Of a stretch of DNA of 35,471 bases, positions 2,166 through 29,502 are shown piece after piece. This DNA is from Bacteroidales bacterium (lineage in GTDB: Bacteria; Bacteroidota; Bacteroidia; Bacteroidales; JAOZQN01), in contig JAOZTW010000001.1 in NCBI GenBank assembly GCA_029938985.1, forward strand, positions 1-35,471, in the 5' to 3' direction. Under the pieces are notes generated by a model, which worked only from the letters and a program-made list of their open reading frames with translations, did not search any database and was not told where the DNA came from. Position numbers and translations under genes: made by a program. Numbering within the stretch: position 1 is the first letter of the stretch; each line of letters begins with the position of its first letter.

Positions 2166-2318
2166 TCATCTAATTTTTATTACTTTTGCTTGAATACCAG
2201 CAATTAATTGATTACCCTCATGAAACAATTTTGCCACAACCGAACCAGCAGCTACAACTGTATGCTCAACAAGTTCCAGACCTGACAGATTGTACAATTT
2301 GTAGTTAATAAAAAATTC
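2166..2318 (-). pseudogene. C-terminal remnant of a hexapeptide-repeat (LbH) acetyltransferase
   Basis: The minus-strand frame reads 'EFFINYKLYNLSGLELVEHTVVAAGSVVAKLFHEGNQLIAGIQAKVIKIR*'. The 'AAGSVV.K....GN.L.AG.PAKVIK' pattern is the usual C-terminus of sugar O-acetyltransferases. There is no start codon and an upstream in-frame stop lies at 2319-2321. The patch is locally GC-richer. Confidence 0.45.
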
Positions 2319-2463: not shown

Positions 2464-2499
2464 GAAAAAAACTTAAACAATGCTATGTATAAGCATTGT
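2464..2499 (-). terminator. Rho-independent terminator closing the 10749..2483 operon
   Basis: On the minus strand, 'acaatgct' (2492-2499) pairs with 'agcattgt' (2477-2484) as an 8-bp perfect stem with a 7-nt loop that contains the TAG stop. It is followed by 'ttaagttttttt'. Confidence 0.6.
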
Positions 2500-3583
2500 C
2501 GCCATCACCAGAATAAAATTCAAAATTCTTGTTTTCAAATAATTTAGATATTTTTTTTGAGGCATAAAAATTTTTATTAAATTGTTTAGAAAATAAATAA
2601 GCCGATTTTTTATTAAATATTTCTAATAGATTTTTGTCAAACAAAGTTATAGTAAAAATTTTATTTCTTCTAATTATTTCTTTTAAAATACAATAAATAT
2701 TATTAATTTCATTTTTTTCGTAAAATATGTAAGGTATTTCTATATTTTTATTTCTTATTTTTATTATAAAAAAAGCAGATATTACATTATTTGAATTATA
2801 TATTTTTATGTTATTGTAACAAAAATTTTTACTTATTGAAGAAAAATAATATTTCATATTAAAATTATCAATAAATGGTGCATTTATTACCCAGGGAAAT
2901 TTTTGAAAATGATTAAATTCACTAATGTTTCTTTTAAATGGATTATTTTTATTTTTATTTAAAATAAAATCATATAATTCATTGTCAATATCTTTAATAA
3001 AAACAAAATTTATATTGTTAATTTTATTTGTTCCAAATTTTGATTTTATATTTATAAAAAAATTAAAAGATTTATCTATAATTTTTAAAGCATATTTTAT
3101 TTTTTTAAAAATTTCAATTTTTTTAGGTAAAATTTGATGTGAAGAAAATCTAAAATAAAATCTTTTGCCTTTCAATGATTTAATTTTTTCAAAATGTTTA
3201 CTTTTATCAAAAACAGCTTTTGCATTGGGTGCAAAATTTGAAAAAAAAATATTATCTTGCAAATCCTCAACTATTTTATTTAGCATTTGTATTGAGTAAC
3301 CTTTTCTTCTTTGCTCTGGTTTGACCCAACTACCACTTGTCCAATAAATTTTATATTTTATATCATTAATAAAAATACAATCCGAAAAAATAGTTCTATA
3401 ACCAATAATTTCATTTTTAATATATAAAATATATATTGCTACATCATTTTTCTCGGCTCTATGATTTTTAATATACGATTTTGCTCGATGTACAGAAATA
3501 GGTAAGTGAGGCATATTTTTGTACTCGTTGGAGTTAATAAAACTGTTTAAATCTTTTATATAAATTTTTTTTATTCTATTCAT
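2483..3583 (-). CDS. GNAT-fold acyltransferase, two-lobed and FemX-like in size
   Basis: GNAT motif A-like 'WVKPEQRRKGYSIQMLNKIVEDL' sits in the N-terminal half, followed by a second lobe of about 200 aa. The gene lies 10 nt downstream of the carrier-protein gene. Confidence 0.6.
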   Translation of the reverse strand: MNRIKKIYIKDLNSFINSNEYKNMPHLPISVHRAKSYIKNHRAEKNDVAIYILYIKNEIIGYRTIFSDCIFINDIKYKIYWTSGSWVKPEQRRKGYSIQMLNKIVEDLQDNIFFSNFAPNAKAVFDKSKHFEKIKSLKGKRFYFRFSSHQILPKKIEIFKKIKYALKIIDKSFNFFINIKSKFGTNKINNINFVFIKDIDNELYDFILNKNKNNPFKRNISEFNHFQKFPWVINAPFIDNFNMKYYFSSISKNFCYNNIKIYNSNNVISAFFIIKIRNKNIEIPYIFYEKNEINNIYCILKEIIRRNKIFTITLFDKNLLEIFNKKSAYLFSKQFNKNFYASKKISKLFENKNFEFYSGDGDNAYT

Positions 3584-3593
3584 TTATATAAAT

Positions 3594-3827
3594 TTATTCA
3601 GTGTGTTTTTTTGAAACAGCTATAGAAATATCATTAATTGTTTCAAAATCAATAATTTCATCTAAATCAAAACTTAGATTAAACTCATCTTCTAAGCTAC
3701 TAATAATAACTGCATGATTTAACGAATCCCAATTTTCAATATTTTCTAACTGAGTATCTTTAGTAATATTACTATTCGAAATTTTTAATTTTTTTGATAT
3801 TAAATTAATAATTTTTTCTGTTATCAT
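3594..3827 (-). CDS. Stand-alone acyl/peptidyl carrier protein, 77 aa
   Basis: 'MITEKIINLISKKL...IENWDSLNHAVIISSLEDEF' carries a DSL phosphopantetheine-serine motif in a helical protein of about 77 aa. I trimmed the ORF-track start at 3965 because it overlaps the upstream gene. The ATG at 3825-3827 lies 19 nt after that gene's stop. Confidence 0.75.
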   Translation of the reverse strand: MITEKIINLISKKLKISNSNITKDTQLENIENWDSLNHAVIISSLEDEFNLSFDLDEIIDFETINDISIAVSKKHTE

Positions 3828-3846
3828 TTTTAATCTGTTTAAATTT

Positions 3847-6126
3847 TTAATTGTTATATTTAGTTTGTGCAAAAATATAAATTGAATTAACATCTGCAAA
3901 ACCAATTTTTTTATAAACTCCATTTCCCACCTTAGTTGAATGCAAAACAAATTCAAATATTTCATTTTTTATAGCTTCATTTATTGCATACAAAGTTATG
4001 GCAGTTCCAAATCCTTTTTTTCTATAATTTTGGTCAGTTGCAATCATATATAATCCTGCTATACTGTTGTTTACATACAACAAAGAAGTAGCCACTGCTA
4101 CACCTTTATAAGTGGCAAGATACAAATAAAAATTGGGATTATTAAGAATTTCGGAGAATAAAGTTTCGGTTAAACTGCCGTTTGAATTAAGTGCATTATT
4201 AGCTATTTTTAACCAAGATTCTAATTGTTCTTGTTTTGTTATTTTAACAATATTTAAGTTTTCATTATATTTATTTTCAATTATTTTATCTTTAAAACAA
4301 TACATTCCTTGCCATTTTGTGATAGGAAAAAAATTATTTTTTTTTAATTCTTTATATTTAAAATTTGTAATATCTGAATTAATAATCCATTTTTTAGGAA
4401 GTTCGTTATTACTAATTAATTTTTTTATTTTAATTAAATTTTCGTCAAAATTTTGTTTATCAATATTTTTATTTAAAATAAAATTAAGCCATTTACCTTT
4501 TGTATTAATAATTGCCGAGAAATCTTTTTCTTTATATGTAGATATATCTTTGTGTGCTATCCAAGAATTATAAAATTGAATTAAATTTGTTTCAATTTTA
4601 AGTTTTTGTTGTTTAATATTATTTTTTTTTACAATCATATCTTTGATTTTATTTCTGTCAGTTTTTCCACTCAAATTTATTGGAAATTGTTCTAATTCAA
4701 TAATTTCGCTTGGTAGCATGTAAGTTGGTAATTTTTTTTGCAAATATTGAAAAAGTGTTTTTTTATCTTTTTGCAAATTTAAGCAAATAAGTTTAATATC
4801 ATGTAAATTTTCAGAATTTTTTATTGCCAAAGCAACAAAATTATCAGCACTCCCCCACTCCACTGCCACGCTTTCAATTTCTTCAAGTTCAACTCTATAG
4901 CCTTGTATTTGAACTTGATTATCAATTCGCCCAAGAAAATAATAATTTTCATTATCATTTTTTATAACTAAATCTCCTGTTTTATAAAATCGGTATTCTT
5001 TATTGTTGTATATTTTGTTAAAAAACTTTAATTTATTGTTTTCAATATTATTAAAATAACCAACTGTTATTTGATTTCCTGCAATACATAATTCTCCTTT
5101 TTTACTGTTTTCTAATATATTATTTTCAATATCTACAACAACAGCAATAGTTGAACCAAAAGTTTTCCCAATAGCTACTATATTATTATTACTTAGATAA
5201 TTATCGTTTTTATGTTTTGTCCAATTAAAAAAATGAGTATCAACAGTTGCCTCAGTTGGTCCATAGGCATTAAATATTTGAGCGTTTGCAATACATTTTT
5301 GCCATTTCAAAAGGTCTGTTTCAAATAATGCTTCTCCTCCAAAAAGTTGTAATTTTATATATGGAAGATGTATTTTATCAAAGTATGATTTTAAAAAAGA
5401 TAACATAGATGGTGTAAATTTTGCAACCGTAATATTATATTTTTTCATAATTTTATATGCCTCTAAATATTTTACTTTTGTTGCAGAAACAGTATAAACA
5501 CTTGCTCCAATAAATAGCGGAAACAGAAAGGAAGGAATTGAGGCATCAAAAGTTAAATCATAAATTTGAAGGAATCTGTCATTATTATTTAAGTTATTAA
5601 AAAAATATTTATAATCTACAATAAATGAATTCAAATTTTTTAATGAAATTTTCACTCCTTTTGGTTGCCCTGTGCTTCCTGAAGTAAAAAATATATACAT
5701 TAAATCATTGTAGGAGAATTTTGAAAAATCTACATTAATATTAATATTTGATTTAATAAAATTTGTATTAACTACAATATTTTCAAAACTATATAATTTA
5801 TTAAAACTTGCTGTACTTGTCAAAATCAAATCTGGTTTTATTTGATTTAAGATTTTTTTATTTCTACTTTTAGGGTGTTTTGGATTCAATGGAACAAAAA
5901 TATTATTAGTAAACCAGCTGGCTAAAATACTTGCATAAGTTTCAATATCATTGTTTACATAAATAACAATAATATTTTGTTTTTCATTTACCTCTTGTTT
6001 AATTAGAAAAATTATTGTATCAATTACCTTTTTAAAATACTCATAAGAATATTTTTTTCCATTAATAAAAAAAGCTGTACTTTTATTATAAAGTGATAAA
6101 TTTTTATGTATAGTCTCTAAAAACAT
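3847..6126 (-). CDS. NRPS-type amino-acid adenylation enzyme (DltA/AlmE-like) fused to a C-terminal GNAT acyltransferase region of about 250 aa
   Basis: Adenylation core motifs are 'FFTSGSTGQPKGV' (A3), 'FDAS' (A4), 'NAYGPTEATV' (A5), 'YKTGDL' (A7), 'GRIDNQVQIQGYRVELEEIE' (A8) and 'LSGKTDR' (A10). The C-terminus has GNAT motif A 'YMIATDQNYRKKGFGTAITLYAINEA'. Confidence 0.85.
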   Translation of the reverse strand: MFLETIHKNLSLYNKSTAFFINGKKYSYEYFKKVIDTIIFLIKQEVNEKQNIIVIYVNNDIETYASILASWFTNNIFVPLNPKHPKSRNKKILNQIKPDLILTSTASFNKLYSFENIVVNTNFIKSNININVDFSKFSYNDLMYIFFTSGSTGQPKGVKISLKNLNSFIVDYKYFFNNLNNNDRFLQIYDLTFDASIPSFLFPLFIGASVYTVSATKVKYLEAYKIMKKYNITVAKFTPSMLSFLKSYFDKIHLPYIKLQLFGGEALFETDLLKWQKCIANAQIFNAYGPTEATVDTHFFNWTKHKNDNYLSNNNIVAIGKTFGSTIAVVVDIENNILENSKKGELCIAGNQITVGYFNNIENNKLKFFNKIYNNKEYRFYKTGDLVIKNDNENYYFLGRIDNQVQIQGYRVELEEIESVAVEWGSADNFVALAIKNSENLHDIKLICLNLQKDKKTLFQYLQKKLPTYMLPSEIIELEQFPINLSGKTDRNKIKDMIVKKNNIKQQKLKIETNLIQFYNSWIAHKDISTYKEKDFSAIINTKGKWLNFILNKNIDKQNFDENLIKIKKLISNNELPKKWIINSDITNFKYKELKKNNFFPITKWQGMYCFKDKIIENKYNENLNIVKITKQEQLESWLKIANNALNSNGSLTETLFSEILNNPNFYLYLATYKGVAVATSLLYVNNSIAGLYMIATDQNYRKKGFGTAITLYAINEAIKNEIFEFVLHSTKVGNGVYKKIGFADVNSIYIFAQTKYNN

Positions 6127-6189
6127 TTTTCTAATAAAATTTTGGTTGAGTTAATAAAACATTGTCTTCTTCTAAACATGAGTTTAGAA

Positions 6190-7197
6190 TTACATTTTTA
6201 TATTATTTTTGCCAAAAAAAGATTTTAAAAAATAATAGAAATATTCGTATTTAATAATATTTTTAGCCTTTAAATTTGATATTTCCATAGGTATTCGTTC
6301 AATATTTTTTTCCGAAAAATGATGTTTCAAACCAAAAGTACCAAATGTTAGTTCAAAATTATTTTTAAATATTATATTAAAAAATGTTTTACTTACTTTT
6401 GCATCGGTAAAAGGAAAAGCAAAAATTTTGTAATTCAAATTAAATTTTTTACAAATAAAATCAGAACTGTTATTTGTTTGTTCCACCTGCTCTTTTAAGC
6501 TTAATTTTTTATATTCAGGATGATTAACACTATGACATCCAATTGAAAAACCATCTGCAATTAATTTATTTATTTGCACTGTTGTTAAATAAGGTTTTTC
6601 TTTTTTTAAAAATTCATTAAAATCTAAATTTATAAGCTCTGCAATTTCGTTCAATTTATTTTTATCTGAATATTTAATTTGTTTAAGCCAATCAAATATA
6701 TTTATATTTAAGTGATTATCTTTTTGTATATAATTTAGTAATTTATTTTTATTTTTTGAATTATTTATTATTTCTTCAATAATTAAACTTATTTTATATC
6801 TATAAAAAAGTGATTTATTATCAATAAAATGCGAGTTTAAAAAAAAAGTTGCAGGAATACCTTTTTTTTTAAGTATTGGAGCAATAATATCATAACATTC
6901 ACTTAATCCATCATCAAACGAAAGAAAAAAAGATTTTTTAGTAATTATTTTTTCTTTATAAAAATGTTTTTTTAACTGCAGATAATTAATAGGTTGATAA
7001 TATTTTAATAAATAATCTAAGTCATTTATAAATTGTTTTTCGTTTTTTAATTGATATAAATGTTTAATATGTGCCAGTTTATTGTTACTTATTGTATGAT
7101 AAAAAGGCAAAATTATTTTCATATCAACTCCATTTATTAATAATTTAGATGGAATAACACTTGAAATTTTTTGAATAATATTTTGATATTTGTTCAT
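6190..7197 (-). CDS. Polysaccharide deacetylase (NodB/CE4 family)
   Basis: The NodB motifs 'SFDDGLSECY' (Asp-Asp) and 'GCHSVNHPEY' (His-x-x-x-His) are both intact. Confidence 0.8.
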   Translation of the reverse strand: MNKYQNIIQKISSVIPSKLLINGVDMKIILPFYHTISNNKLAHIKHLYQLKNEKQFINDLDYLLKYYQPINYLQLKKHFYKEKIITKKSFFLSFDDGLSECYDIIAPILKKKGIPATFFLNSHFIDNKSLFYRYKISLIIEEIINNSKNKNKLLNYIQKDNHLNINIFDWLKQIKYSDKNKLNEIAELINLDFNEFLKKEKPYLTTVQINKLIADGFSIGCHSVNHPEYKKLSLKEQVEQTNNSSDFICKKFNLNYKIFAFPFTDAKVSKTFFNIIFKNNFELTFGTFGLKHHFSEKNIERIPMEISNLKAKNIIKYEYFYYFLKSFFGKNNIKM

Positions 7198-7201
7198 AAA
7201 A

Positions 7202-8095
7202 TCAAAATTTCTTAAATAATCTAAATATTTTAGGTATTCTATTTTGATTATAATTTGAATAGAAAAACTCTTGAAAATTAAAACCTAAAGCAAGTTCTTT
7301 AATATTTTCAATATACTTACCGTCTAAGTGAAGTGAGATATTTTTTTTTGAATTAATTTTAATAAAGTAGTTTATCAAAAAAATAGCTGCATCTACATTT
7401 TCACAATTTAAAAATAACAGATTAACATTATGTTTAGAAAAAATGAAAAAAGATAATCCTAATAATTTATTTTTATTATCGTAAACTCCAAGTAAAACGG
7501 AGATTTTTTTTAATAACGATTTTGAAATCAACCTTCTCAAATTATCATAATCCTCTGGTAGTTCAAAATAATTTTTGTTTTTCAAATAATTAATTACAAT
7601 ATGAGGAGAAACTCCAGCTTTAACAAAATATTTATTATTATTTCCTGTCTGAATTGATTTTAAACAATTCCAAGAAAAAATTTTCACTATGGAGGAATAA
7701 GGTTCAATTAAATCTAAGGTATAATAATTTTTATTTTCTAAAATTAGTTGTTCTGGAAAAATATTATGTTTGTTGAAATTCAGATTTATTTTTTTGAATT
7801 TCTCTGGAATAAAATTTATAAAAGCCTCAGTATCTGCCTCATTTAGAGTTGTTGTGCTGTAAATCCCAAGCTGAAATACAAAAATAGGTTGAAATATAAC
7901 ATTGTACTTCAATTTTGAGTAATATATTAAAGGTAACACTTTTTCGTAATCACCATGTACAATTGCCGCCCAATTAGAACTCATGCAATCTAAATACCAG
8001 GAATATGCAAATACCTGACAATTAATAGATTTGGAAATACATAAATCCCATTTACGATATTCAATTTCTTTATTTTTTAAAAATTTTAATTTCAT
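7202..8095 (-). CDS. FemAB/Acetyltransf_6-like (GNAT-fold) acyltransferase family protein
   Basis: N-terminus 'YRKWDLCISKSINCQVFAYSWYLDCMSSNWAAIVHGDYEKVLPLIY' matches a conserved Bacteroidota family with an acyl-CoA N-acyltransferase fold. It lies 4 nt from the deacetylase gene and shares an ATGA overlap with the upstream gene. Confidence 0.55.
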   Translation of the reverse strand: MKLKFLKNKEIEYRKWDLCISKSINCQVFAYSWYLDCMSSNWAAIVHGDYEKVLPLIYYSKLKYNVIFQPIFVFQLGIYSTTTLNEADTEAFINFIPEKFKKINLNFNKHNIFPEQLILENKNYYTLDLIEPYSSIVKIFSWNCLKSIQTGNNNKYFVKAGVSPHIVINYLKNKNYFELPEDYDNLRRLISKSLLKKISVLLGVYDNKNKLLGLSFFIFSKHNVNLLFLNCENVDAAIFLINYFIKINSKKNISLHLDGKYIENIKELALGFNFQEFFYSNYNQNRIPKIFRLFKKF

Positions 8096-10749
8096 TTTTC
8101 TTTTATCTCAAATCTTTTATTTATTTCGCAATTATTTGCATCTCTCACGGTTACAAAATACTCACCTTGTGATATGTTTTCCAAAGTAGCTGTTGTATTA
8201 CCATTTGTCCAACTAATTGCATAAGGTTTAGTTCCACCAGAAAGAGACAATTCAATTTTACCATCACTTTTGTTTTTCGAAGGTAAACTAAAATTTGCTA
8301 TTATTTCAAATTGTTCTGGTTTATTTATTACGGCTTCTTTTGTAATAGTACAATCATATTTATCGGTTATTTCAACAACATAAGTACCGCTATCTAAGTT
8401 CGTTAAAGATTGTACGTCTCCCCCACCCGACCAACTATATAAATATTCAGGAACTCCTCCTTGTGGTTTTACAAATATTGAACCATTATTTTTTTCAAAA
8501 CAAGTAACATTTTGTATTTCAAGTTCAGCTGTTAAAACATTTGTTGGTGTTTTAACATTTACAGTTTTATTTTCCTTACAACCATTAGTATCAATTATTT
8601 CTATTTTATAATCTCCAGCGGTTAATTGACTAATAATAGAATCTGTAACTCCATTTGACCACTTATATTTGTAAGGAGCTGTTCCGCCCGTTACAGATGC
8701 TAATACCTCACCATCATTTCCCTTAAAACAACTGACATTCTTGGGGTTAGCATTAATATAAATTCTTCGTGCAGGTTGATTTACATATATAATTCTTTCA
8801 TTTTTACAATTATTTTTATCAATAACAGTAATACTATAAGGTCCAGCTCTCAATTTATTTATCTTATCTTTTTCTTCCCTATTAGACCATTTATAGCTAT
8901 AATCTGGAGTTCCCCCAGTTACAAATAATTCAATTTTTCCATCTTCTCCTCCAAAACATTTTACATCAGTTGTGGTATAATCTATCTTAATTGTGTCTTC
9001 TGGTTGTGTAATTTCAATAGTATCATTAAATACGCAATTAAATTTATCAATTATTTGTAAATGATATTTTCCTGCCTCCAGTCCAGTCATTCGTTTATTT
9101 TCATAAGTATCTATCCATAAGTACTTATAACCTCCTCCACCACCTTCAGCATCTGCTTTTATTGTGGCATCGTTTCCTCCAAAACAATTTACATTTTTAA
9201 TATCATACCTTGCAGTTAATGGATAGTCTGGTTGTTGAATATTTACTCCTTGTTCATAAGTACAATCGTGAGAATCAGTTAATAATAAATTATATCTTCC
9301 AACTCCAAGATTACTTGCTTCTTCTGTAGTATCTCCTGTTGACCATTTATATCTATAAGGTGGAGTTCCGCCCGAAGCCGATGCTTTTGCAACTCCATCA
9401 AAACCATCTTTACAGGTTACTTTTGTTGTTTCAAACTTGAGTGCAAGCGGAAAATTTGGTGTAACAATTGTTACACTATCTGTTCTTACACAATTGTTAT
9501 CATCTTGAACTATAATTCCATATATTCCTTTTCTTAAATTATAAATAGAATCTTGTTTTTTTGCATTTGTTGACCACACGTAATAATAAGGTGGTACTCC
9601 ACCAGAAATATTTGCAATAAGTTTACCATCATTTTCTTTATAACAGGTAATTTGATGTATATCAACATTTAGCATTAAAGAATCTAAAGGTTCGGTTAAT
9701 GTAAAAGAAGTAGATGCTTTATTGTTCTTATTATCAATTACCTCAACTGAATATGTGCCAGCAAGCTCATTAATTAGGTTTTCGGTAGTGTCTCCATTAG
9801 ACCATTTATATTTGTAATCAGGTATTCCTCCACGCACAAGTAAGTCAACAATTCCATTATTTCCTCCTTTACAAAACGGATTTCTTACATAGCCATCAAG
9901 ACTCAACATTTCTTCAAACTTGAATGAAATTTGAGTTACATTATCATTCTCATCAAGAATTGCTTCTGCAACAGGTATTCCTTCATTTTTAGCATACCAA
10001 CGATATTGGGTATATTTAACACTTTTAGAATATTTTAAACATGGCTCCCAATATCCTGTATTTACTGGACCCAATGAATCTGATGTTATTTCTGTTGAAT
10101 TTTCTTTTCTTCTATTTGTTCTAATTCGCTTTTTGATAACTGTTTTTTCGCACAGTACATCAAAAGTGTTAATAGCAGTTCGCAGTTCGGCTTGTTCAAT
10201 AAATTCGGTATGTATTTCTAAATCAATAAAAGACATAATAGAATCTATTGAAACATCGTAATTGTCTTCAAAAGCAGATTTAAACACTATATCGTTTTTA
10301 CTTACAATAGAATCTCCTTCTGTTAGTGGGAAATTATACTGTAAAACAAAGTCTGGAAATTGAACAAAAGCGGGAGTTCCAATGTGTAAATAATCTCCAA
10401 TTACTCCTGCCTGCTGTAATCCGTTTTCCGACAAGTTCCAATAATTTGCTTTAGAAAACCTATATGTTTTTACAATATTTATTGAGTCAAAATACTTTCC
10501 ATAAGTAGTTTCACTCGGTTTTTGAAAACGTATAGTATCGTAACTATCTTTTTTTAAAAATGAAAAATCCCAAGTATTTCCTCGTTTAAAATTTTCTATT
10601 TTAACTTCTTCTTCGCTTTTAAAAGTAGAAATTGCCATTATAAAATTCTCTCCAGGTTTTGCAAAATCGTTGTAGTCAATTTCAATTTGTGCAAAAATTG
10701 ATAATGGAAATATCAGAGTTATTAAAATGATTGATAGAAAATTTTTCAT
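8092..10749 (-). CDS. Secreted SprB-repeat protein: signal peptide, a 270-aa domain of unknown function, then eight SprB repeats. No recognisable T9SS C-terminal domain.
   Basis: The signal peptide is 'MKNFLSIILITLIFPLSIFAQ'. Eight repeats with a period of about 76 aa fit 'C.GG.DG.I....GG.PPY.Y.WS.G'. The protein ends at a repeat boundary ('NCEINKRFEIKEK'). Confidence 0.85.
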   Translation of the reverse strand: MKNFLSIILITLIFPLSIFAQIEIDYNDFAKPGENFIMAISTFKSEEEVKIENFKRGNTWDFSFLKKDSYDTIRFQKPSETTYGKYFDSINIVKTYRFSKANYWNLSENGLQQAGVIGDYLHIGTPAFVQFPDFVLQYNFPLTEGDSIVSKNDIVFKSAFEDNYDVSIDSIMSFIDLEIHTEFIEQAELRTAINTFDVLCEKTVIKKRIRTNRRKENSTEITSDSLGPVNTGYWEPCLKYSKSVKYTQYRWYAKNEGIPVAEAILDENDNVTQISFKFEEMLSLDGYVRNPFCKGGNNGIVDLLVRGGIPDYKYKWSNGDTTENLINELAGTYSVEVIDNKNNKASTSFTLTEPLDSLMLNVDIHQITCYKENDGKLIANISGGVPPYYYVWSTNAKKQDSIYNLRKGIYGIIVQDDNNCVRTDSVTIVTPNFPLALKFETTKVTCKDGFDGVAKASASGGTPPYRYKWSTGDTTEEASNLGVGRYNLLLTDSHDCTYEQGVNIQQPDYPLTARYDIKNVNCFGGNDATIKADAEGGGGGYKYLWIDTYENKRMTGLEAGKYHLQIIDKFNCVFNDTIEITQPEDTIKIDYTTTDVKCFGGEDGKIELFVTGGTPDYSYKWSNREEKDKINKLRAGPYSITVIDKNNCKNERIIYVNQPARRIYINANPKNVSCFKGNDGEVLASVTGGTAPYKYKWSNGVTDSIISQLTAGDYKIEIIDTNGCKENKTVNVKTPTNVLTAELEIQNVTCFEKNNGSIFVKPQGGVPEYLYSWSGGGDVQSLTNLDSGTYVVEITDKYDCTITKEAVINKPEQFEIIANFSLPSKNKSDGKIELSLSGGTKPYAISWTNGNTTATLENISQGEYFVTVRDANNCEINKRFEIKEK
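8095..9873 (-). repeat. Eight tandem coding repeats of about 228 bp (SprB repeat units)
   Basis: The repeat-initial Cys residues at aa 293 and 369 show the period, which continues to the C-terminus. Confidence 0.8.
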
Positions 10750-11882: not shown

Positions 11883-12665
11883 CTAACTAACAGCAAATTC
11901 TGAAAGTTTTTTCAAGAAATTTTTCTTTTTCCCTTCCGAAACATCTACCTGTTTGTCGGTAGTTAGAATAACATATCCACCACGTCCTTTAACATATTTT
12001 TTAATATATTTTAAATTCACAAGATGTTTATTATGGATTCTACAAAAATTTGAATTGCTCAACATTCGTTCGTATATTTGAATTGATTTAGAAACTACAA
12101 TTTTTTTCTTAGTTGTTAAATAAAAAGTAGTATAATTATTGCTCGATTCACAACGCAGAATATCATCTAATTGAATAATATTTAAACCTGAAGAAGTAGG
12201 TAAAATAAGTCGGTCTAAATTTTTGTTAATATTGCTATTAAGTACTTTTATCTTTTCTTTTAAGTCTTCGTTTTTTGCATCATCAAATCTACCAACCGCT
12301 TCTTTTAATTGCATACCAGTAACAGGTTTCACAAGATAATGTAAAGCTGAGAACTCAAAGGCTTTAAGGGCGTAGTGATTATAGGCAGTTATAAAAACAA
12401 CTTCAAGAGAAGTGTCATTAATTTTTTCTAAAACCTCAAAACCCTCACCATCAGGCATACTGATGTCTAAAAATACAAGTTCTGGTTTGTTTTTATTAAT
12501 AACCTTAATCCCCTCTGCCACAGATTGTGCCACTGCAACTACCTCAACTTGTGGACAATTTTTTTCAAGAAGTTTTGATAAAATTATCAAACTATTTTTT
12601 TCGTCATCAATAAGTACAGTTTTAATTTTTTTTTCATTCATAATATTATATTTTAGTTGTTTCAA
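11883..12665 (-). CDS. LytTR-family response regulator
   Basis: The receiver domain shows 'KTVLIDDE...ELVFLDISMPDGEGFEVL'. The C-terminal LytTR region shows 'ILRCESSNNYTTFYL...FCRIHNKHLVNLKYI'. The alternative start at 12641 (MNEKKIK...) may be the true one. Confidence 0.9.
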   Translation of the reverse strand: MKQLKYNIMNEKKIKTVLIDDEKNSLIILSKLLEKNCPQVEVVAVAQSVAEGIKVINKNKPELVFLDISMPDGEGFEVLEKINDTSLEVVFITAYNHYALKAFEFSALHYLVKPVTGMQLKEAVGRFDDAKNEDLKEKIKVLNSNINKNLDRLILPTSSGLNIIQLDDILRCESSNNYTTFYLTTKKKIVVSKSIQIYERMLSNSNFCRIHNKHLVNLKYIKKYVKGRGGYVILTTDKQVDVSEGKKKNFLKKLSEFAVS

Positions 12666-12684
12666 ATGTTTTTTTCAATATGCC

Positions 12685-15615
12685 TTATTCAAAAGATTTG
12701 TAAGGAAAAGTTAATACAGCTTTTGTACCTGTAGAATTATTGTTATCATCGTATAAATCAATTATTTCAACAGAGGTAACAGAGTTAGATAGTACATTTA
12801 TTAAATTTATTCTCTCTTCTATATTTCTTAGTCCAGTAGAAACATGGTTTTTTCTTCGTTTAGATATTTCGGCCGATTTTTCTCTACCAATTCCATTATC
12901 TATTATAATACAAATAAGTTCGTTAGCTGGTGTAACTGATATATCAAGAGTTAATATTCCTTCTTTGGCTTTTGGTGCCAAACCATGCCAAATTGCATTT
13001 TCTAAATAAGGTTGTAAAAGCATTGGAGGAATTTTTATATTTGAAATATTTACATTATCTTCATAATTTATTCTAAATATAAAACTTTCGTCAAATCTCA
13101 TTTTTTCAAGTTCCAAATAAAGTCTTAATGTTTCTAATTCTGTTTCTAATAATATAAAATTCTTTTTTGAATTTTCAAGCACCATTCTCATTAAACTTGC
13201 AAAACTTGTAAGGTAAGTATCAGCCGTATCTGGGTCATTTTCTAATATATATCGTCTAATTGAGTTTAAAGCATTAAAAATAAAATGAGGATTCATTTGA
13301 GCTCGTAAAGCTTTTTGTTCTGCAAACATCAATTTATGTTTATTATGCAATTCCTTCTCCATACTTCTATAAATAATAAAGAAGACAAAAAAAGTTATTA
13401 TTATTATCAATAAAATTACAATTATCTGAAATAAAATTGTTTGTGTAAATCTTTTTGCAATTTTAAATTCTAATTCATACGAATTTTCGTTCCAATATCC
13501 ATCTTCGGCAGAGGCGGTTACATAAAATTTGTACTTACCATAAGGCAGGTTTGGAAAACGAACAAAATTATTAACTGTTTCAACCCAAGTATCATCAAAA
13601 CCCTCCAAGCGATACCTATATTTTACCTTATTACTTGCCTTAAAACTAATTGCTTTAAAATATACGGTTATATTATTTTCTTTATTATGTAAATTGTAAC
13701 TATTTTTCAATTCCAACGATTTATTGTTAACCATAAAACTATCTAAAATAATTTTTGGAGGAACAAAATTTTTCTTTAAATTATCAGGAAAAAAAGACAC
13801 TAATCCTTTGCTTGTTCCAAGATATATACAGTTTTCAACCATTGCTATATCTTTAATTTCTTCGGAATAAAGTCCCTCCGATTTTGTGTATTTTTCATGA
13901 TTAAAAGCAATGCTGTCGTTTAATGAAATTGTTAATTTGCACAAGCCCTTATTTGTTCCTAACCACAGAGTGTTAGTATTTTGTATAAAAATAGTATTAA
14001 TAAAATTTGAATTTAATCCTTGAGCTACTGTCAAGTTTTTTACATCTTTAGTAATTGGATTGTAAACAATTAAACCTTCACCACCTGTTGCAAACAACAA
14101 ATATTTGTCAATTTGTTTTATATCATTAATTCTTGATTTGAACAACAAATTATAAAAACCATAAAACTCTAAAGTAGTATTGTAACAATACAAACCATTT
14201 ATTGAACCTATCCAAACAACTCCTTCGGAATCTTCAAAAATTGAATTTGAAATAGGAATATGATTTTGAGTATAAGTAAAATGTATGCTATCGCCCAAGT
14301 ATTTTTGAAAACCATTATGCAGGGTTGAAATAATAGAAGAATCACCAGATTCACAAAGATTGTAACCTCTACTCAAAGTATCAATAATCTTTGTTTCTCC
14401 GTTATACATTTTAAATAACTCTTTTCCTAAAAACCAAATTGAATTATCCGATTTCTTAAAAATATCTAAAATAGGATAATCTCGTTCTCGTTTCAGTGCT
14501 ATATTTTGAATAGAAAGAATTTTTTCTTTATTCAATTTACATTTAAAAACCTGTTTGTTATAAGTTGAAAAATACAAATAATCTTCGGCAATTTCCATAG
14601 ATAAAATATTAAAATCACTGAAACCATATTGTTTATAAGAATTAAATTGAAACGACGAAACAAAATATACTCCATCTTCAGTCGTAGAGAACCAGTAATT
14701 TCCTTCTCTATCTTGATATGCAGAAATAGGAGATTTCCCTCTCAAATAAATTGTAACTTTGGAATCTAAATCTTTTTCTGGATAAAAATAAACTCCCTCA
14801 TACATTACGCTAACCCAAAAATTACCTTTATTGTCTGACATTAAACCCGAAATTTCATTTTTGTAAGTTCTACTTTTAACTATTACTTTATCTTTTACAT
14901 AAAATAACATATTTCCTTTTGAGAACAAATATTCATTATAACCAACTTTTGCAAAATATCTTCTTAAACCTATTGTTTTTTTGGTTTTAAAATAATAAAC
15001 ATCATTTTTCACTTTCAACATTAAAGTATCTATTGAGTAATTATTATGTAAATCGCACCAGATATAGCCTTTAGGCATCTCCTTGAAAAAAAATGTACTA
15101 CTATCAGAATAATTAGATAATTCATCTGTTATTGCTCCATTTTCTGTTATTTTATACAAGCCACCAATACTTGGCATTAACCACAAACTGTTCTGTGCGT
15201 CGATATAAATATTATCTATAAAATAATTTTTTGACAATATTTTTATTGTATCATTATATTGGAATTGAACAATTTCTCCATTTTCAATATAACTCAAATC
15301 ACCATCATAGGCTGATAACCAAATCCTGTTTTTGTAGTCCTCAAATATTTTTATCACAGAGTTTGAGGACAAACCATCTCTAACTGTGTAGTTAACAAAT
15401 TCATGCCCATCAAACCTACTAATTCCTTTGCTTGTAGCAAACCACATATATCCATCTTTGTCTTGCAGTTGTGAATACACTTCAGAACTTGGTAATCCTT
15501 GTTCAACGCTATAATGCTCAAATGCAGAGTTTTGAGCTTTCAATATCATTGAAAAAAGAACGATAAAAATGGTTAGTAATATTCTCGTATTTAATGGTTT
15601 TAACATTATAGTCAT
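12685..15615 (-). CDS. Sensor histidine kinase: periplasmic beta-propeller repeats, a Y_Y_Y domain, one TM segment, then LytS-type His_kinase and HATPase domains
   Basis: Repeated 'G.W.GT..GL' propeller motifs precede 'YRYRLEGFDDTWV' (Y_Y_Y). TM segment is 'ILFQIIVILLIIIITFFVFFIIY'. 'NPHFIFNALNSI' is the LytS-type H-box and 'DNGIG' marks the ATPase. Confidence 0.9.
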   Translation of the reverse strand: MTIMLKPLNTRILLTIFIVLFSMILKAQNSAFEHYSVEQGLPSSEVYSQLQDKDGYMWFATSKGISRFDGHEFVNYTVRDGLSSNSVIKIFEDYKNRIWLSAYDGDLSYIENGEIVQFQYNDTIKILSKNYFIDNIYIDAQNSLWLMPSIGGLYKITENGAITDELSNYSDSSTFFFKEMPKGYIWCDLHNNYSIDTLMLKVKNDVYYFKTKKTIGLRRYFAKVGYNEYLFSKGNMLFYVKDKVIVKSRTYKNEISGLMSDNKGNFWVSVMYEGVYFYPEKDLDSKVTIYLRGKSPISAYQDREGNYWFSTTEDGVYFVSSFQFNSYKQYGFSDFNILSMEIAEDYLYFSTYNKQVFKCKLNKEKILSIQNIALKRERDYPILDIFKKSDNSIWFLGKELFKMYNGETKIIDTLSRGYNLCESGDSSIISTLHNGFQKYLGDSIHFTYTQNHIPISNSIFEDSEGVVWIGSINGLYCYNTTLEFYGFYNLLFKSRINDIKQIDKYLLFATGGEGLIVYNPITKDVKNLTVAQGLNSNFINTIFIQNTNTLWLGTNKGLCKLTISLNDSIAFNHEKYTKSEGLYSEEIKDIAMVENCIYLGTSKGLVSFFPDNLKKNFVPPKIILDSFMVNNKSLELKNSYNLHNKENNITVYFKAISFKASNKVKYRYRLEGFDDTWVETVNNFVRFPNLPYGKYKFYVTASAEDGYWNENSYELEFKIAKRFTQTILFQIIVILLIIIITFFVFFIIYRSMEKELHNKHKLMFAEQKALRAQMNPHFIFNALNSIRRYILENDPDTADTYLTSFASLMRMVLENSKKNFILLETELETLRLYLELEKMRFDESFIFRINYEDNVNISNIKIPPMLLQPYLENAIWHGLAPKAKEGILTLDISVTPANELICIIIDNGIGREKSAEISKRRKNHVSTGLRNIEERINLINVLSNSVTSVEIIDLYDDNNNSTGTKAVLTFPYKSFE

Positions 15616-17541: not shown

Positions 17542-18405
17542 ATGAAAAATTATTTATCAACATTGATTTTTATTCTGTTTTTTGTTGTAAGTGGCTATGC
17601 TCAAATAGACATGATTCAAGTAGATGGCACTAGTGCCGATGGATACACGATGGGAAATATCAATGCAGGAGTACAAGACGAAGGAAAAGAGCACCGGGTA
17701 GTTGTTGATGCATTTCAAATTGCATCTAAAGAAGTAACATTCCAAGAATTTGATTTGTTTTGCAATATGACAAGTTATCCAAAACCAAGCGATCAGGGTT
17801 TTTCAGATATTACGGGAGATGACAAAAAAAATGCTCAACTAAGAGATTCGTTACCAGTAATAAATGTAACTTGGATGGGGGCTGTAATGTATTGTAATTG
17901 GTTGAGTAAACAATATGATTACAAACAGTATTATATTATTGAATTAGATACATCGGGTGTGTTGGCGTTTAAAGGCATAAATCCAGACAATGATGGATTT
18001 AGATTACCAACAGAAGCAGAATGGGAATGGATGGCAAAAGGAGGAGCTACACCACCTCCACATTTTTCTTATGCAGGAAGTAACAATTTAGAAGAAGTAG
18101 CTTGGGTACAAAGTAATTCTAAAGCCAAAACTCAGCCAGTTGGCACAAAAAAACCAAACGAACTTCAAATTTACGACTTATTAGGAAATGCTCCAGAATG
18201 GTGTTACGACTATTATGGTGCAACTTACTACACTGCACAAGGAAATGGGAACAACCCCAAAGGACCATCTTCTGGAATAGCAAGAGTATATAGAGGTGGG
18301 AGTTTTAACTCACCTACCGCAGGATTTAGATATACTAAAAGATATAAATTATCTCAAACTGAAAGTATTGGTCCCATTGGTTTTAGAGTAGCAAGAAATA
18401 AATAA
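17542..18405 (+). CDS. Secreted FGE-sulfatase (SUMF1/GldK-like) fold protein, paralog 1
   Basis: The signal peptide is 'LIFILFFVVSGYAQ'. Family motifs are 'RLPTEAEWEWMAKGG', 'GNAPEWCYDYY', 'RVYRGGSF' and 'IGFRVARN'. Confidence 0.85.
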   Translation: MKNYLSTLIFILFFVVSGYAQIDMIQVDGTSADGYTMGNINAGVQDEGKEHRVVVDAFQIASKEVTFQEFDLFCNMTSYPKPSDQGFSDITGDDKKNAQLRDSLPVINVTWMGAVMYCNWLSKQYDYKQYYIIELDTSGVLAFKGINPDNDGFRLPTEAEWEWMAKGGATPPPHFSYAGSNNLEEVAWVQSNSKAKTQPVGTKKPNELQIYDLLGNAPEWCYDYYGATYYTAQGNGNNPKGPSSGIARVYRGGSFNSPTAGFRYTKRYKLSQTESIGPIGFRVARNK

Positions 18406-18487: not shown

Positions 18488-18744
18488 AGATTATAATTAA
18501 GAGGAAATGAAATAATAAAGTAAGTCCAAAATACACAGTTTTTTTGTTTTTTTAATAATTTAACAATCTGCAAATAGCGAGATATTTAATGACTTTTTTA
18601 AAATTAAAAAAAAACAAGTAGATTGGTGATGAGTAGTTGACCATAAATAAACGACACTTTTTAAGGTCAATTTTAGCATTATGCTTCGTTATAAAAGATT
18701 ACCTACTTAACTTTTTTTCTTGTTCACTAAAATACATAAATAAA

Positions 18745-19611
18745 ATGAAAAATTCGATATTTATATTATTTTTAATATTTTCAATAGTAACAAATAGTTA
18801 TTCACAAAACCCCAAAATGGTATTAGTTGCAGGAACTGGCACAGAGGGTTACACAATGGGAAATATATATTCAAAAACTCCTGACGAAGGGCATGAACAC
18901 ACAGTTGTCTTAGATGCTTTTTATGCAGGTAAGTTTGAGGTAACTTTTAAGGAATTTGATTTTTTTTGTAAATCTACAGGTTTTCCAATTCCCTCAGATC
19001 AGGGTTTTGCAAGCGAAACATCAAATAAGGAAATTAACAAAAAAATAAGAGATTCACTCCCAGTAATTAATGTAACCTGGATTGGAGCTATTATGTATTG
19101 TAATTGGCTTAGTAAAATTGATAACTTAGACCAATATTATATCACAGAATTAGATACAATTGGTAATTTTAGTTTCAAAGGAATAAAAGCAGAGAACAAC
19201 GGCTACCGACTACCAACAGAAGCCGAATGGGAGTGGATGGCAAATGGTGGTGCAAAAAAGAAAGGTTATGCGTTTTCGGGAAGTAACAATATATACGAAA
19301 TTGCTTGGATAAAAGAAAATTCTGATGCTAAAACACATAAAATAGGTACTAAAAAAGCTAACGAACTTGGAATTTATGACTTAAATGGGAACGCCCCAGA
19401 ATGGTGTTATGATTATTATTCAAAAAGCTATTACGCAAGCAATAAAAATAAGGATAATCCCAAAGGTCCAAACAATGGTTCATCAAGAGTTTATAGAGGT
19501 GGGAATTTCAATACTCCAAAACAAAACTACAGGATAACAAGAAGATACAAGTTAACACAAAGCGAAAATATTGGTCCAATTGGTTTCAGACTTGTTAAAA
19601 ATAAGAATTAA
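18745..19611 (+). CDS. Secreted FGE-sulfatase fold protein, paralog 2 (tandem duplicate)
   Basis: It is colinear with paralog 1: 'RLPTEAEWEWMANGG', 'GNAPEWCYDYY', 'RVYRGGNF', 'IGFRLVKN'. I moved the start from the ORF-track TTG at 18637 to the ATG at 18745, which gives signal peptide 'MKNSIFILFLIFSIVTNSYSQ'. Confidence 0.85.
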   Translation: MKNSIFILFLIFSIVTNSYSQNPKMVLVAGTGTEGYTMGNIYSKTPDEGHEHTVVLDAFYAGKFEVTFKEFDFFCKSTGFPIPSDQGFASETSNKEINKKIRDSLPVINVTWIGAIMYCNWLSKIDNLDQYYITELDTIGNFSFKGIKAENNGYRLPTEAEWEWMANGGAKKKGYAFSGSNNIYEIAWIKENSDAKTHKIGTKKANELGIYDLNGNAPEWCYDYYSKSYYASNKNKDNPKGPNNGSSRVYRGGNFNTPKQNYRITRRYKLTQSENIGPIGFRLVKNKN

Positions 19612-27096: not shown

Positions 27097-27531
27097 ATGA
27101 TAATTATGCTTATAACTATACAATCTTTTAATCACAAACACGAGCTTTTTAAAAAAGCCATGGAGATTAGATTTACTGTTTTTGTAGAAGAACAAAATGT
27201 TGATAAAAATATAGAATATGATGGGTTAGATTTTGAGGCAGTCCATTTTATTGTAATTATTGATGACACACCTGTTGCTACTTTGAGATACAGAGAAACT
27301 GAAGAGGGGGTAAAAATTGAACGAATGTCGGTTCTTAAAGAACATAGAAGATTGGCGTATGGGCATTTATTGTTAAAACATGTTCTTGCTGGGTTGGTTT
27401 TATCAAAACATAAAATATATTTGAATGCTCAAGAATCGGCGGTAAACTTTTATAAAACAATGAATTTCAGTATTGTTGGCGACGAATTTTATGATGCTAA
27501 TATTAAACATTTTAAGATGATTTATAAATGA
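27097..27531 (+). CDS. GNAT-family N-acetyltransferase (ElaA/YjcF-like)
   Basis: 'IRFTVFVEEQNV....EYDGLD' and 'RMSVLKEHRRLAYGHLLLKHVL' (motif A) fit the family. An ATGA overlap links it to the next gene. Confidence 0.8.
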   Translation: MIIMLITIQSFNHKHELFKKAMEIRFTVFVEEQNVDKNIEYDGLDFEAVHFIVIIDDTPVATLRYRETEEGVKIERMSVLKEHRRLAYGHLLLKHVLAGLVLSKHKIYLNAQESAVNFYKTMNFSIVGDEFYDANIKHFKMIYK

Positions 27532-29033: not shown

Positions 29034-29465
29034 ATGACAATAAAAATAATAAATAAATCCAAAAATACTCTTCCTGCTTATAGTACAGAATACTCTGCGG
29101 GAATGGATTTAAGAGCAAATTTAGATAAAATAGTTATTATAGAACCATTGGAACGAGAACTTATTCCTACAGGTTTGTTTATTGAACTACCACAAGGATA
29201 TGAAGCACAAATACGTCCCAGAAGTGGATTGGCTATAAAAAATGGAATAACTCTGCTTAACGCACCAGGAACAATTGATGCAGATTACAGAGGCGAGATT
29301 AAGGTTATATTAATAAATTTGTCGAACACCAATTTTGAAGTAAAAAATGGCGAAAGAATTTGTCAAATGGTGATTGCAAAACACGAAAAAGTAGATTGGC
29401 AACAAGTAACAATTTTAGAAGAGTCGGGTAGGGGAGAGGGTGGTTTTGGACACACAGGAAAATAA
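29034..29465 (+). CDS. dut: dUTP diphosphatase
   Basis: 'AGMDLRA', 'RPRSGLA', '[11 protein letters not shown]', 'GERICQMV' and '[10 protein letters not shown]' are the five dUTPase motifs. Confidence 0.95.
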
Positions 29466-29502
29466 ATTTAAGAATTATAAATTAATAACTAAAATAATAA
29501 TT

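Follow-up and report, generated by a model that had tools for sequence, protein, structure and literature searches.

A cassette of five enzyme genes on the minus strand of contig JAOZTW010000001.1 (positions 2483-8095), from the Bacteroidales bacterium assembly GCA_029938985.1, combines a nonribosomal peptide synthetase (NRPS)-type adenylation (A) domain fused to a GNAT module, a free-standing carrier protein, a carbohydrate esterase family 4 (CE4, NodB-type) deacetylase, a FemX-fold protein of 297 amino acids (aa), p297, and a tandem-GNAT acyltransferase of 366 aa, p366. We lean towards the view that this cassette is a conserved Bacteroidota unit that, in the cytoplasm, would exchange the N-acetyl group on an amino sugar precursor of a surface glycan for another N-substituent. 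We infer both the catalytic steps and the identity of the acceptor from the identities of the domains and folds, from conserved motifs, and from the synteny and nested distribution of the genes across genomes, and on these grounds the A-GNAT-carrier-p366 set would constitute an undescribed donor module added to the deacetylate-and-aminoacylate chemistry of the Vim pathway. The window denotes the whole 35,471-nt contig, whose open reading frames (ORFs) were scanned against Pfam, the cassette proteins being scanned also against NCBIfam; every absence reported for the window refers to this stretch of about 35 kb of genome.

Six minus-strand ORFs form a tight array at 2483-10749. Along that strand, a gene for an 885-aa SprB-repeat protein (8092-10749) is followed by those for p297, a putative aminoacyl transferase (7202-8095), the 335-aa deacetylase (6190-7197), the 759-aa A-GNAT fusion (3847-6126; A domain, residues 1-510, 4597-6126; GNAT module, residues 511-759, 3847-4596), the 77-aa carrier protein (3594-3827) and p366, of an uncharacterised family (2483-3583). 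The stop codon of the 885-aa gene shares bases with the start of the p297 gene in an ATGA overlap (gaaaaATGAaatt, 8095-8092), and the remaining spacers, computed from the coordinates, measure 4, 63, 19 and 10 nt. All five cassette enzymes lack transmembrane segments, hydrophobic segments and signal peptides.

Ten loci carrying a homologue of the A domain were compared (the window, L001, L002/L003, L004, L088, L089, L090, L091, L096 and L097). The A-GNAT-carrier-p366 core is present in eight of them, with p366 fragmented in L091; a CE4 deacetylase gene is adjacent in eight and a FemX-fold gene is found in nine. The window shares the order FemX-NodB-A-GNAT-carrier-p366 with L001, L088, L091 and L096, and the canonical arrangement, in which a VimE-like gene precedes this series, is seen in L001, L088 and L096. 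Other loci vary the theme: L090 reads NodB-A-GNAT-carrier-p366 followed by a second FemX paralogue (FemX-b), L002/L003 hold a rearranged version of the cassette, and L004 encodes a second A-GNAT fusion together with a carrier, p366 and a divergent Acetyltransf_6 gene. The recurrence of this gene order in unrelated contigs argues for more than chance association. The sequence-only reading had considered co-occurrence of all six genes across Bacteroidota; the five enzyme genes are indeed syntenic elsewhere, but the SprB-repeat gene is found only in the window among the ten loci. In L089 (8001-17524), an A-domain homologue with the divergent specificity code DFACLCAVFK heads a distinct LuxC/LuxE/MBOAT cluster, made up of three tandem paralogues of 226-241 aa with no Pfam match, a carrier, an SDR protein, a second AMP-ligase, LuxE, LuxC and a convergent MBOAT gene.

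The distribution of the FemX family, which occurs in at least 589 species genomes, places these loci in a wider series. The 80 best loci listed are all from Bacteroidota, and their usual order is RadC-DUF7033-FemX-upp; about a dozen add the deacetylase, and five add the deacetylase and p366. The contig scan was queried with the p297 alignment and drew mainly "housekeeping" FemX genes (FemX-a), so that the co-occurrence of the A-carrier genes in 1 of 80 loci is a biased estimate, and the corresponding metagenome scan with p366 returned three loci only. FemX-NodB-p366 sets without the A-GNAT-carrier genes are found in L011, L024, L069, L079 and L083, and in L092 (3534-6316), which encodes the closest relative of p297 (49% identity), FemX-NodB-sulfotransferase-FemX-b stands in place of A-GNAT-carrier-p366. 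The loci thus form a nested series: FemX alone or with VimE; with the deacetylase added; with p366 added; with A-GNAT-carrier inserted; and with a sulfotransferase replacing A-GNAT-carrier and p366. Judged from gene content, the system is modular, A-GNAT-carrier being an insert between the deacetylase and p366 genes, and the nested distribution suggests that the deacetylase and p366 act as an acyl-swap pair for which A-GNAT-carrier is a plug-in donor module. The arrangement in L092 also recalls the logic of N-deacetylase/N-sulfotransferase systems, and sulfotransferase genes flank the cassette in L068 and L090 as well. FemX-b follows p366 in L086, L090, L091 and L094. The window has no FemX-b gene, and a tblastn search there for a FemX-b remnant downstream of p366 gave none.

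The 759-aa protein, for which an independent Logan assembly yields an identical ORF, has an AMP-binding match of 168 bits over residues 16-358 in Pfam and scores 284 bits against the amino-acid adenylation model TIGR01733, slightly below its cut-off of 317. Its nearest PDB sequence matches are the NRPS A domains LgrA and GrsA (1amu), DltA and AlmE (4oxi), with E about 1e-40 against the DltA and AlmE structures. Core motifs A3 to A10 are all readable (TSGSTGQPKG, FDAS, NAYGPTE, YKTGDL, GRIDNQVQIQGYRVELEEIE, SGKTDR). D235 and K517 do not vary across the 120 best homologues, 101 of which keep K278, and this bears out the earlier identification of an NRPS/DltA/AlmE-type domain with the Asp that binds the amino group. 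The domain is, as far as its motifs tell, an alpha-amino-acid enzyme, and activation of an alpha-amino acid followed by loading of the carrier is strongly suggested because the core motifs are complete, D235 and K517 are invariant and so is the serine of the carrier. The specificity code, which the sequence-only reading had proposed to extract, is DAPKLGAVDK in the window, and the family consensus is DAHKLGVINK (63 of 120 homologues); the Stachelhaus columns were anchored on a GrsA segment, and the anchor gave DAWTIAAICK, validating the columns. The basic residues at 239 and 278 of the code seem nearer to the codes for Asp, Asn, Glu and Gln than to those for Gly and Ala, the published codes serving here as an indicative guide, and the pocket (K278, with H or P at 239 and either N or D at 331) hints slightly at a side chain that is polar or acidic, unlike those of Gly and D-Ala. 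A literature search returned no match for the specificity codes, for DUF7033 or for VimA paired with an adenylation or carrier protein.

The carrier itself has a PP-binding match of 36 bits, and its site W-D-S-L-x-H contains a serine that is invariant in seven cassette homologues of 76-83 aa, so that the free-standing carrier with a DSL serine proposed from the sequence stands on both counts. Its ORF extends to 123 aa, the 77-aa form starting at an internal ATG, and we favour the shorter form because homologous carriers measure 76-83 aa.

An A domain paired with a free-standing carrier could also signify a system of the Dlt or Alm type, in which the carrier-bound amino acid would be joined by an ester or amide bond to lipid A, a phospholipid or a teichoic-acid-like polymer and alter the surface charge, the GNATs replacing DltB/DltD or AlmG and p297 working like the C-terminal domain of MprF. 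The matches to the DltA and AlmE structures point this way, as do the resemblance of p297 to the catalytic domains of MprF and of aminoacyl-phosphatidylglycerol synthases (TM-score 0.53-0.56) and the presence of LpxK near the VimE-like/FemX pair in seven loci. The A domain also scores 240 bits against the DltA subfamily model NF003417, but this is far under the cut-off of 476, and TIGR01734 likewise gives 226 bits against a cut-off of 560. The window encodes no MBOAT, DltD or LpxL-type protein, and the earlier observation that DltB, DltD and AlmG are missing holds, with no matching Pfam domain among the scanned ORFs. The five enzymes, unlike MprF and DltB, have no membrane segment, and the partners of the cassette and its relatives are sugar-pathway enzymes (the CE4 deacetylase, a VimE homologue, a family 4 glycosyltransferase (GT4), a WbpS-like amidotransferase, a flippase, a sulfotransferase and a 2-epimerase). 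We consider a lipid or teichoic-acid-like target quite unlikely.

The GNAT module of the fusion gives Acetyltransf_10 and Acetyltransf_1 matches at about residues 656-749, and among PDB structures it is closest to the active C-terminal GNAT of VipF, a tandem-GNAT protein. Seven homologues conserve its coenzyme A (CoA)/phosphopantetheine loop, YRKKGFG, as well as the motif-B Tyr. Fusion to the A domain is found in only 2 of 120 homologues; in nearly all relatives the GNAT has a gene of its own, encoding 234-264 aa and sharing 4-11 nt with the A gene. The p366 protein has a weak N-terminal GNAT match in Pfam (21 bits), and its AlphaFold2 (AF2) model (pLDDT 89) resembles tandem GNATs of the Eis and N-myristoyltransferase types in Foldseek searches (TM-score about 0.5, E 2e-12), with the N-terminal CoA-loop residues R92-x-x-G95 invariant. 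The p366 family comprises 734 clusters (50% identity, E<=1e-30), none with an annotation more specific than hypothetical protein or generic GNAT. Together with p297, described below, these proteins make up the three GNAT-type transferase candidates singled out from the sequence, and all three are tandem-GNAT-like by structure model or by the VipF match. The profile hidden Markov model and structure searches that had been recommended therefore recovered an A domain with a GNAT, a carrier, a CE4 enzyme and two tandem GNATs.

The deacetylase matches Polysacc_deac_1 with 67 bits. D95-D96 of motif MT1 (FDDG) and the MT2 residues H222-S-x-x-H226 are invariant in 15 homologues, and weak NCBIfam matches to the PgdA and PdaA models accompany the family assignment. 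It is not of the VimE type, as NF053580 is absent from its NCBIfam matches. The maximum of its hydropathy profile (KD19) is 1.23, and because no signal peptide or transmembrane segment is present we place the enzyme in the cytoplasm. The earlier suggestion that it could expose an amine stays plausible for a cytoplasmic CE4 enzyme that retains its metal and base motifs.

Peptidoglycan precursors could also be the substrate, with a FemX-type enzyme furnishing the stem peptide with a branch amino acid, and with GlcNAc or MurNAc as targets of the deacetylase and GNATs. The FemX/FemA fold of p297 accords with such tailoring, the CE4 family does include peptidoglycan GlcNAc deacetylases, as the PgdA and PdaA matches recall, and DUF5715 and M23 peptidase genes lie near some family members. 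Peptidoglycan deacetylases, though, act outside the cytoplasm, and the cassette enzyme carries no export signal. The conserved upstream partner is a VimE homologue, and the substrate of VimE is a diacetamido-uronic acid; the flippase, GT4 and WbpS-like neighbours indicate a glycan of the Wzx/Wzy type; and we know of no interpeptide bridges in Bacteroidota peptidoglycan. Peptidoglycan tailoring is, in our judgement, highly improbable.

No Pfam or NCBIfam model matches p297. Its AF2 model (pLDDT 92) is a FemX-type double GNAT, and its top Foldseek neighbours in the PDB are Sba18/Sbb17, FemA and FemX (TM-score 0.65-0.68, E about 3e-9), with MprF also among them; against FemX (1ne9 and 6snr) the TM-score is 0.68 at a probability of 1.0, in agreement with the double-GNAT fold of FemABX proteins. 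Four of 12 members of the p297 family match TIGR03019 (pepcterm_femAB), with a best E of 2.6e-7. We describe p297 as a putative aminoacyl transferase of a VimA-like/pepcterm_femAB family, its likeness to VimA being predicted from the family matches and the modelled fold.

The same neighbours raise the possibility that the genes direct the synthesis of a diffusible natural product, for example an N-acyl amino acid or, as in the streptothricin and butirosin types, an amino sugar or nucleoside bearing an amino acid. An A domain with a free carrier and acyltransferases is a common motif in such clusters, of which the butirosin set BtrI/J/K/H is an example, and one locus, L002, adds a decarboxylase of the ornithine/diaminopimelate type. 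Sba18, Sbb17 and Orf11 are aminoacyl-tRNA-dependent FemX-fold enzymes of streptothricin-type antibiotic synthesis, and Sba18 and Sbb17 aminoacylate the amino sugar of streptothrisamine (PMC12945691). Against a secreted metabolite stand the lack of any condensation, thioesterase, scaffold-forming, transporter or resistance gene, the placement of the cassette amid housekeeping genes (RadC, upp, MutS2, RNase P) at a position conserved across Bacteroidota orders, and the breadth of the FemX family, which at 589 or more species genomes is atypical for secondary metabolism; such a role appears very unlikely. All three alternatives, the lipid or polymer target, the peptidoglycan and the natural product, are less likely than the sugar-precursor reading because the five enzymes are soluble, their partners belong to sugar pathways and the cassette keeps a housekeeping position across several orders.

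The decarboxylase gene of L002 (4938-6209, minus strand), of the ornithine/diaminopimelate/arginine pyridoxal-phosphate type, lies with AsnB, GT1 and FemX-b genes beside A-GNAT-carrier-p366, and recalls on-carrier decarboxylation (BtrK, butirosin) and the TIGR03099 decarboxylase of PEP-CTERM loci.

The link to the Vim pathway comes from the gene directly upstream of the FemX-fold gene, which in 54 of 81 loci encodes a 435-aa DUF7033 protein. All 20 of 20 upstream DUF7033 proteins match NF053580, the model for the UDP-2,3-diacetamido-2,3-dideoxy-alpha-D-glucuronate deacetylase VimE, with a best E of 1e-57 and 177 bits, short of the 440 bits that the equivalog model sets as its cut-off. The DUF7033 alignment gave no match in a PDB profile search, and hhalign showed no relationship between DUF7033 and the NodB family (probability 0.3), so that we do not assign the two deacetylases to one family. 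In Porphyromonas gingivalis and Tannerella forsythia, VimE acts on the Wbp product, from which it takes off the 2-N-acetyl group, and VimA, reported as a member of the TIGR03019 family, determines the addition of Ser or Gly; the vim loci resemble PEP-CTERM exopolysaccharide loci (Veith et al., PMC7468200). The free amine of the linking-sugar amino acid is, in these two species, the point at which type IX secretion system (T9SS) cargo is attached to lipopolysaccharide (LPS) through an amide. Both the amino acid and the sugar vary between species, the N-alanyl-deoxyhexose route of Prevotella intermedia is stated as unknown, and "several different biosynthetic pathways" beyond VimA/VimE alone have been postulated for Bacteroidota linking sugars (PMC11969387). 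The view from the sequence that this gene combination follows no described pathway does not wholly hold, given that the FemAB-like and deacetylase half obeys the Wbp/Vim linking-sugar logic (PMC7468200).

Genes for GT4, an AsnB/WbpS-like amidotransferase and a Polysacc_synt flippase lie near the cassette in L002, L083, L091 and L096, a UDP-GlcNAc 2-epimerase gene lies near the FemX gene in 15 loci, and a T9SS plug gene (PF17116) accompanies the VimE-like/FemX pair in 8 of the 81 loci (L005-L084), on the strand opposite FemX-a and about 3.5 kb downstream of it. The cell-surface target proposed by the sequence-only reading thus finds support in the GT4, WbpS-like, flippase and sulfotransferase neighbours, but not through the coupling to the SprB-repeat gene from which it had been derived. 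A role in the anchoring of T9SS cargo is possible. The more specific proposal that A-GNAT-carrier-p366 offers a tRNA-independent, NRPS-like route for placing an amino acid, or a second one, on the LPS linking sugar to which PorU attaches cargo seems to us rather unlikely.

In the cytoplasmic swap that we favour, the acceptor would be a nucleotide- or undecaprenyl-linked amino sugar precursor of a surface glycan, for instance an exopolysaccharide, a "linking sugar" or a side branch of LPS. The CE4 deacetylase would first remove the N-acetyl group and free the amine, as suggested by its family, its kept metal and base motifs and the precedent of VimE. Next, p297 would add an amino acid to a freed amine, probably from aminoacyl-tRNA, in line with its fold, its family and the pairing of VimE with VimA-like proteins. 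The A domain would then activate an alpha-amino acid and load the 77-aa carrier as a thioester, a step for which the case is strong, and the fused GNAT and p366, both with a CoA/phosphopantetheine loop, would together process the carrier-bound amino acid and deliver it to a sugar amine; alternatively, one of the two may cap the amino acid with acetyl-CoA. In variants with a sulfotransferase or with p366 alone, the freed amine could undergo N-sulfation instead, or N-acylation with a CoA donor. GNAT-fold enzymes that use acyl-S-carrier donors include FeeM, OlsB and LuxI, and the conflict between aminoacyl-tRNA and aminoacyl-S-carrier donors on which the sequence-only reading dwelt was to that extent overstated.

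Several observations weigh against this scheme. The deacetylase had been called intact from the sequence, and its metal and base motifs are indeed kept, but the Arg of MT3 is replaced (F-A/S-F-P-F; FAFPF in the window) and the His of MT5 is not conserved, both departures from the canonical enzyme. The p297 of the window does not itself match TIGR03019, and in its F-x-K-x-F-G-A stretch it has Leu where several relatives have Lys, a residue that we take to be the catalytic Lys of FemX (K305 in Weissella viridescens FemX). The p366 gene occurs in L086 and L093-L095 without a nearby deacetylase or A-carrier gene, and its acceptor therefore need not be a deacetylase product. Finally, the window holds no DUF7033/VimE homologue, no gene of the WbpA/B/E/D set by which a 2,3-diacetamido uronic acid is supplied, no cassette-adjacent glycosyltransferase and no T9SS gene, the PorU sortase included, and the acceptor sugar is for this reason deduced from other genomes. 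The loci closest to the window, L091 and L092, likewise lack DUF7033 at this position; it may be that an ordinary CE4 enzyme has taken the place of VimE, or that VimE is encoded elsewhere in the genome.

The 885-aa protein, at the head of the array, has a signal peptide and eight SprB repeats (273 bits). No T9SS C-terminal domain was recognised in it (Por_Secre_tail 14.9 bits against a threshold of 27, TIGR04183 14.5 against 23), its last 70 residues being SprB repeat, and in the lack of a recognisable C-terminal sorting domain it cannot be called T9SS cargo. None of the 80 loci of the FemX family has an adjacent SprB-repeat gene, nor has any of the other nine loci with an A homologue. We discarded the protein as leader or target of the system, since it is neither conserved with the cassette nor equipped with a sorting domain, and its earlier placement as a member and lead of the unit is not upheld. 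In the window its gene is probably co-transcribed with the cassette; to judge by its distribution it is a lineage-specific neighbour outside the conserved set, with a coupling peculiar to this genome.

A Bacteroidota -7-like box, TAATTTTG, is located 28 nt before the first ATG of the 885-aa gene (10785-10778, minus strand). The window is very AT-rich (G+C about 20-30%), and the motif TANNTTTG occurs in it 102 times against 81 +/- 8 expected. The box lies where it had been reported, but its weight as a promoter is low: its position alone is faintly suggestive and its mere presence is not, and we rejected the TAnnTTTG box as statistical evidence of a promoter, the motif being common in an AT-rich window. 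At the other end, a terminator-like hairpin with a T-run (2500-2476, minus strand; 9 bp, loop of 7, tail TAAGTTTTTT) takes in part of the p366 gene with its stop codon; six terminator-like sites were counted in 11 kb against 1.9 expected. The positions first described for the six same-strand ORFs, for the ATGA overlap and the spacers of 4, 63, 19 and 10 nt, and for the terminal hairpin are all correct. A second terminator-like hairpin is found at 2258-2233. The 63-nt spacer between the deacetylase and A-domain genes (6127-6189, minus strand) contains a small perfect inverted repeat, CTAAAC-TCAT-GTTTAG, and no TAnnTTTG box was found on the minus strand within it.

Beyond the cassette, the 740-nt spacer past p366 includes an open stretch (2170-2290, minus strand) ending in ...SGLELVEHTVVAAGSVVAKLFHEGNQLIAGIQAKVIKIR*, which resembles the C-terminal end of a left-handed beta-helix (LbH, hexapeptide) sugar N-acetyltransferase and may be a gene remnant, possibly WbpD-like. 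Farther downstream, on the same strand as the cassette, is a gene for a 357-aa class I S-adenosylmethionine methyltransferase (669-1742). In L079 a different methyltransferase gene directly follows p366; homology between the two was considered and dropped, as BLAST gave no match. The linking sugars of P. intermedia are partly O-methylated (PMC11969387). Just upstream of the cassette, the window encodes a Reg_prop/Y_Y_Y histidine kinase and a LytTR response regulator (11883-15615, minus strand); a Reg_prop/Y_Y_Y hybrid kinase gene directly precedes the VimE-like gene in L096 (1-3749) and a histidine kinase gene follows p366 in L094 (11178-13259), adjacencies that may reflect a recurrent regulatory linkage or coincidence. 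On the plus strand, two adjacent paralogous genes for FGE-sulfatase (SUMF1-like) proteins occupy 17542-18405 and 18637-19611. A further plus-strand group (27097-29027 and 29440-30477) comprises a 144-aa GNAT gene overlapping a 499-aa Polysacc_synt flippase gene by 4 nt, followed by dUTPase and PD-(D/E)XK transposase-family genes; this flippase is only marginally similar to those beside the cassette in other loci.

If the proposed chemistry is correct, the cassette would extend carrier chemistry of the Dlt/Alm type from lipids and teichoic acids to sugar amines. On the rather unlikely linking-sugar reading, it would also provide a new case of a GNAT-fold enzyme with an aminoacyl-S-carrier donor in glycan N-aminoacylation and would represent one of the alternative linking-sugar pathways postulated for Bacteroidota (PMC11969387). 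The cassette is a concrete candidate for the diversification of N-aminoacyl sugars in the surface glycans of this phylum, and it furnishes a working hypothesis for two large uncharacterised families, p366 and the FemX-a/b paralogues.

Among known systems, the Wbp/Vim pathway shares with the scheme proposed for the cassette the plan in which a cytoplasmic deacetylase strips an N-acetyl group and a FemAB-like transferase adds an amino acid, and in relatives of the window the likeness extends to a VimE homologue before the FemX gene and to GT4 (VimF-like), WbpS-like and flippase genes nearby. It differs in that the deacetylase of the window is an ordinary Polysacc_deac_1 enzyme, accompanied by neither a VimE homologue nor Wbp genes, and in that the A domain, fused GNAT, carrier and p366 have no counterpart in the described Vim pathway. 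The XrtA/PEP-CTERM set, itself functionally uncharacterised, offers a similar parts list of ligase, carrier, FemAB protein, deacetylase and AsnB-like amidotransferase, represented by the models TIGR03098 (ligase), TIGR03099 (decarboxylase), TIGR03019 (FemAB), TIGR03006 (deacetylase) and TIGR03108 (amidotransferase) together with a carrier protein; the cassette departs from it in scoring 164 bits against a TIGR03098 cut-off of 592, in matching neither TIGR03019 nor TIGR03006, and in the absence of an exosortase from the window. Orf11, Sba18 and Sbb17, the best structural neighbours of p297, likewise N-aminoacylate the amine of an amino sugar, but belong to actinobacterial secondary metabolism and share about 9-10% identity with p297. 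With DltABCD and AlmEFG the cassette would have in common a stand-alone adenylation enzyme that loads a small dedicated carrier for envelope modification; in place of DltB (MBOAT), DltD or an LpxL-type AlmG its transferase candidates are soluble GNAT-fold proteins, and its specificity code differs from the codes that go with small or neutral amino acids. The Nod factor pathway shows the same succession of events, in that the cytoplasmic CE4 enzyme NodB de-N-acetylates a GlcNAc unit and the amine is re-acylated from an acyl-S-carrier by NodA/NodF; NodA, however, has another fold and transfers a fatty acyl group, whereas in the cassette the donor would be an amino acid and the transferases GNATs.

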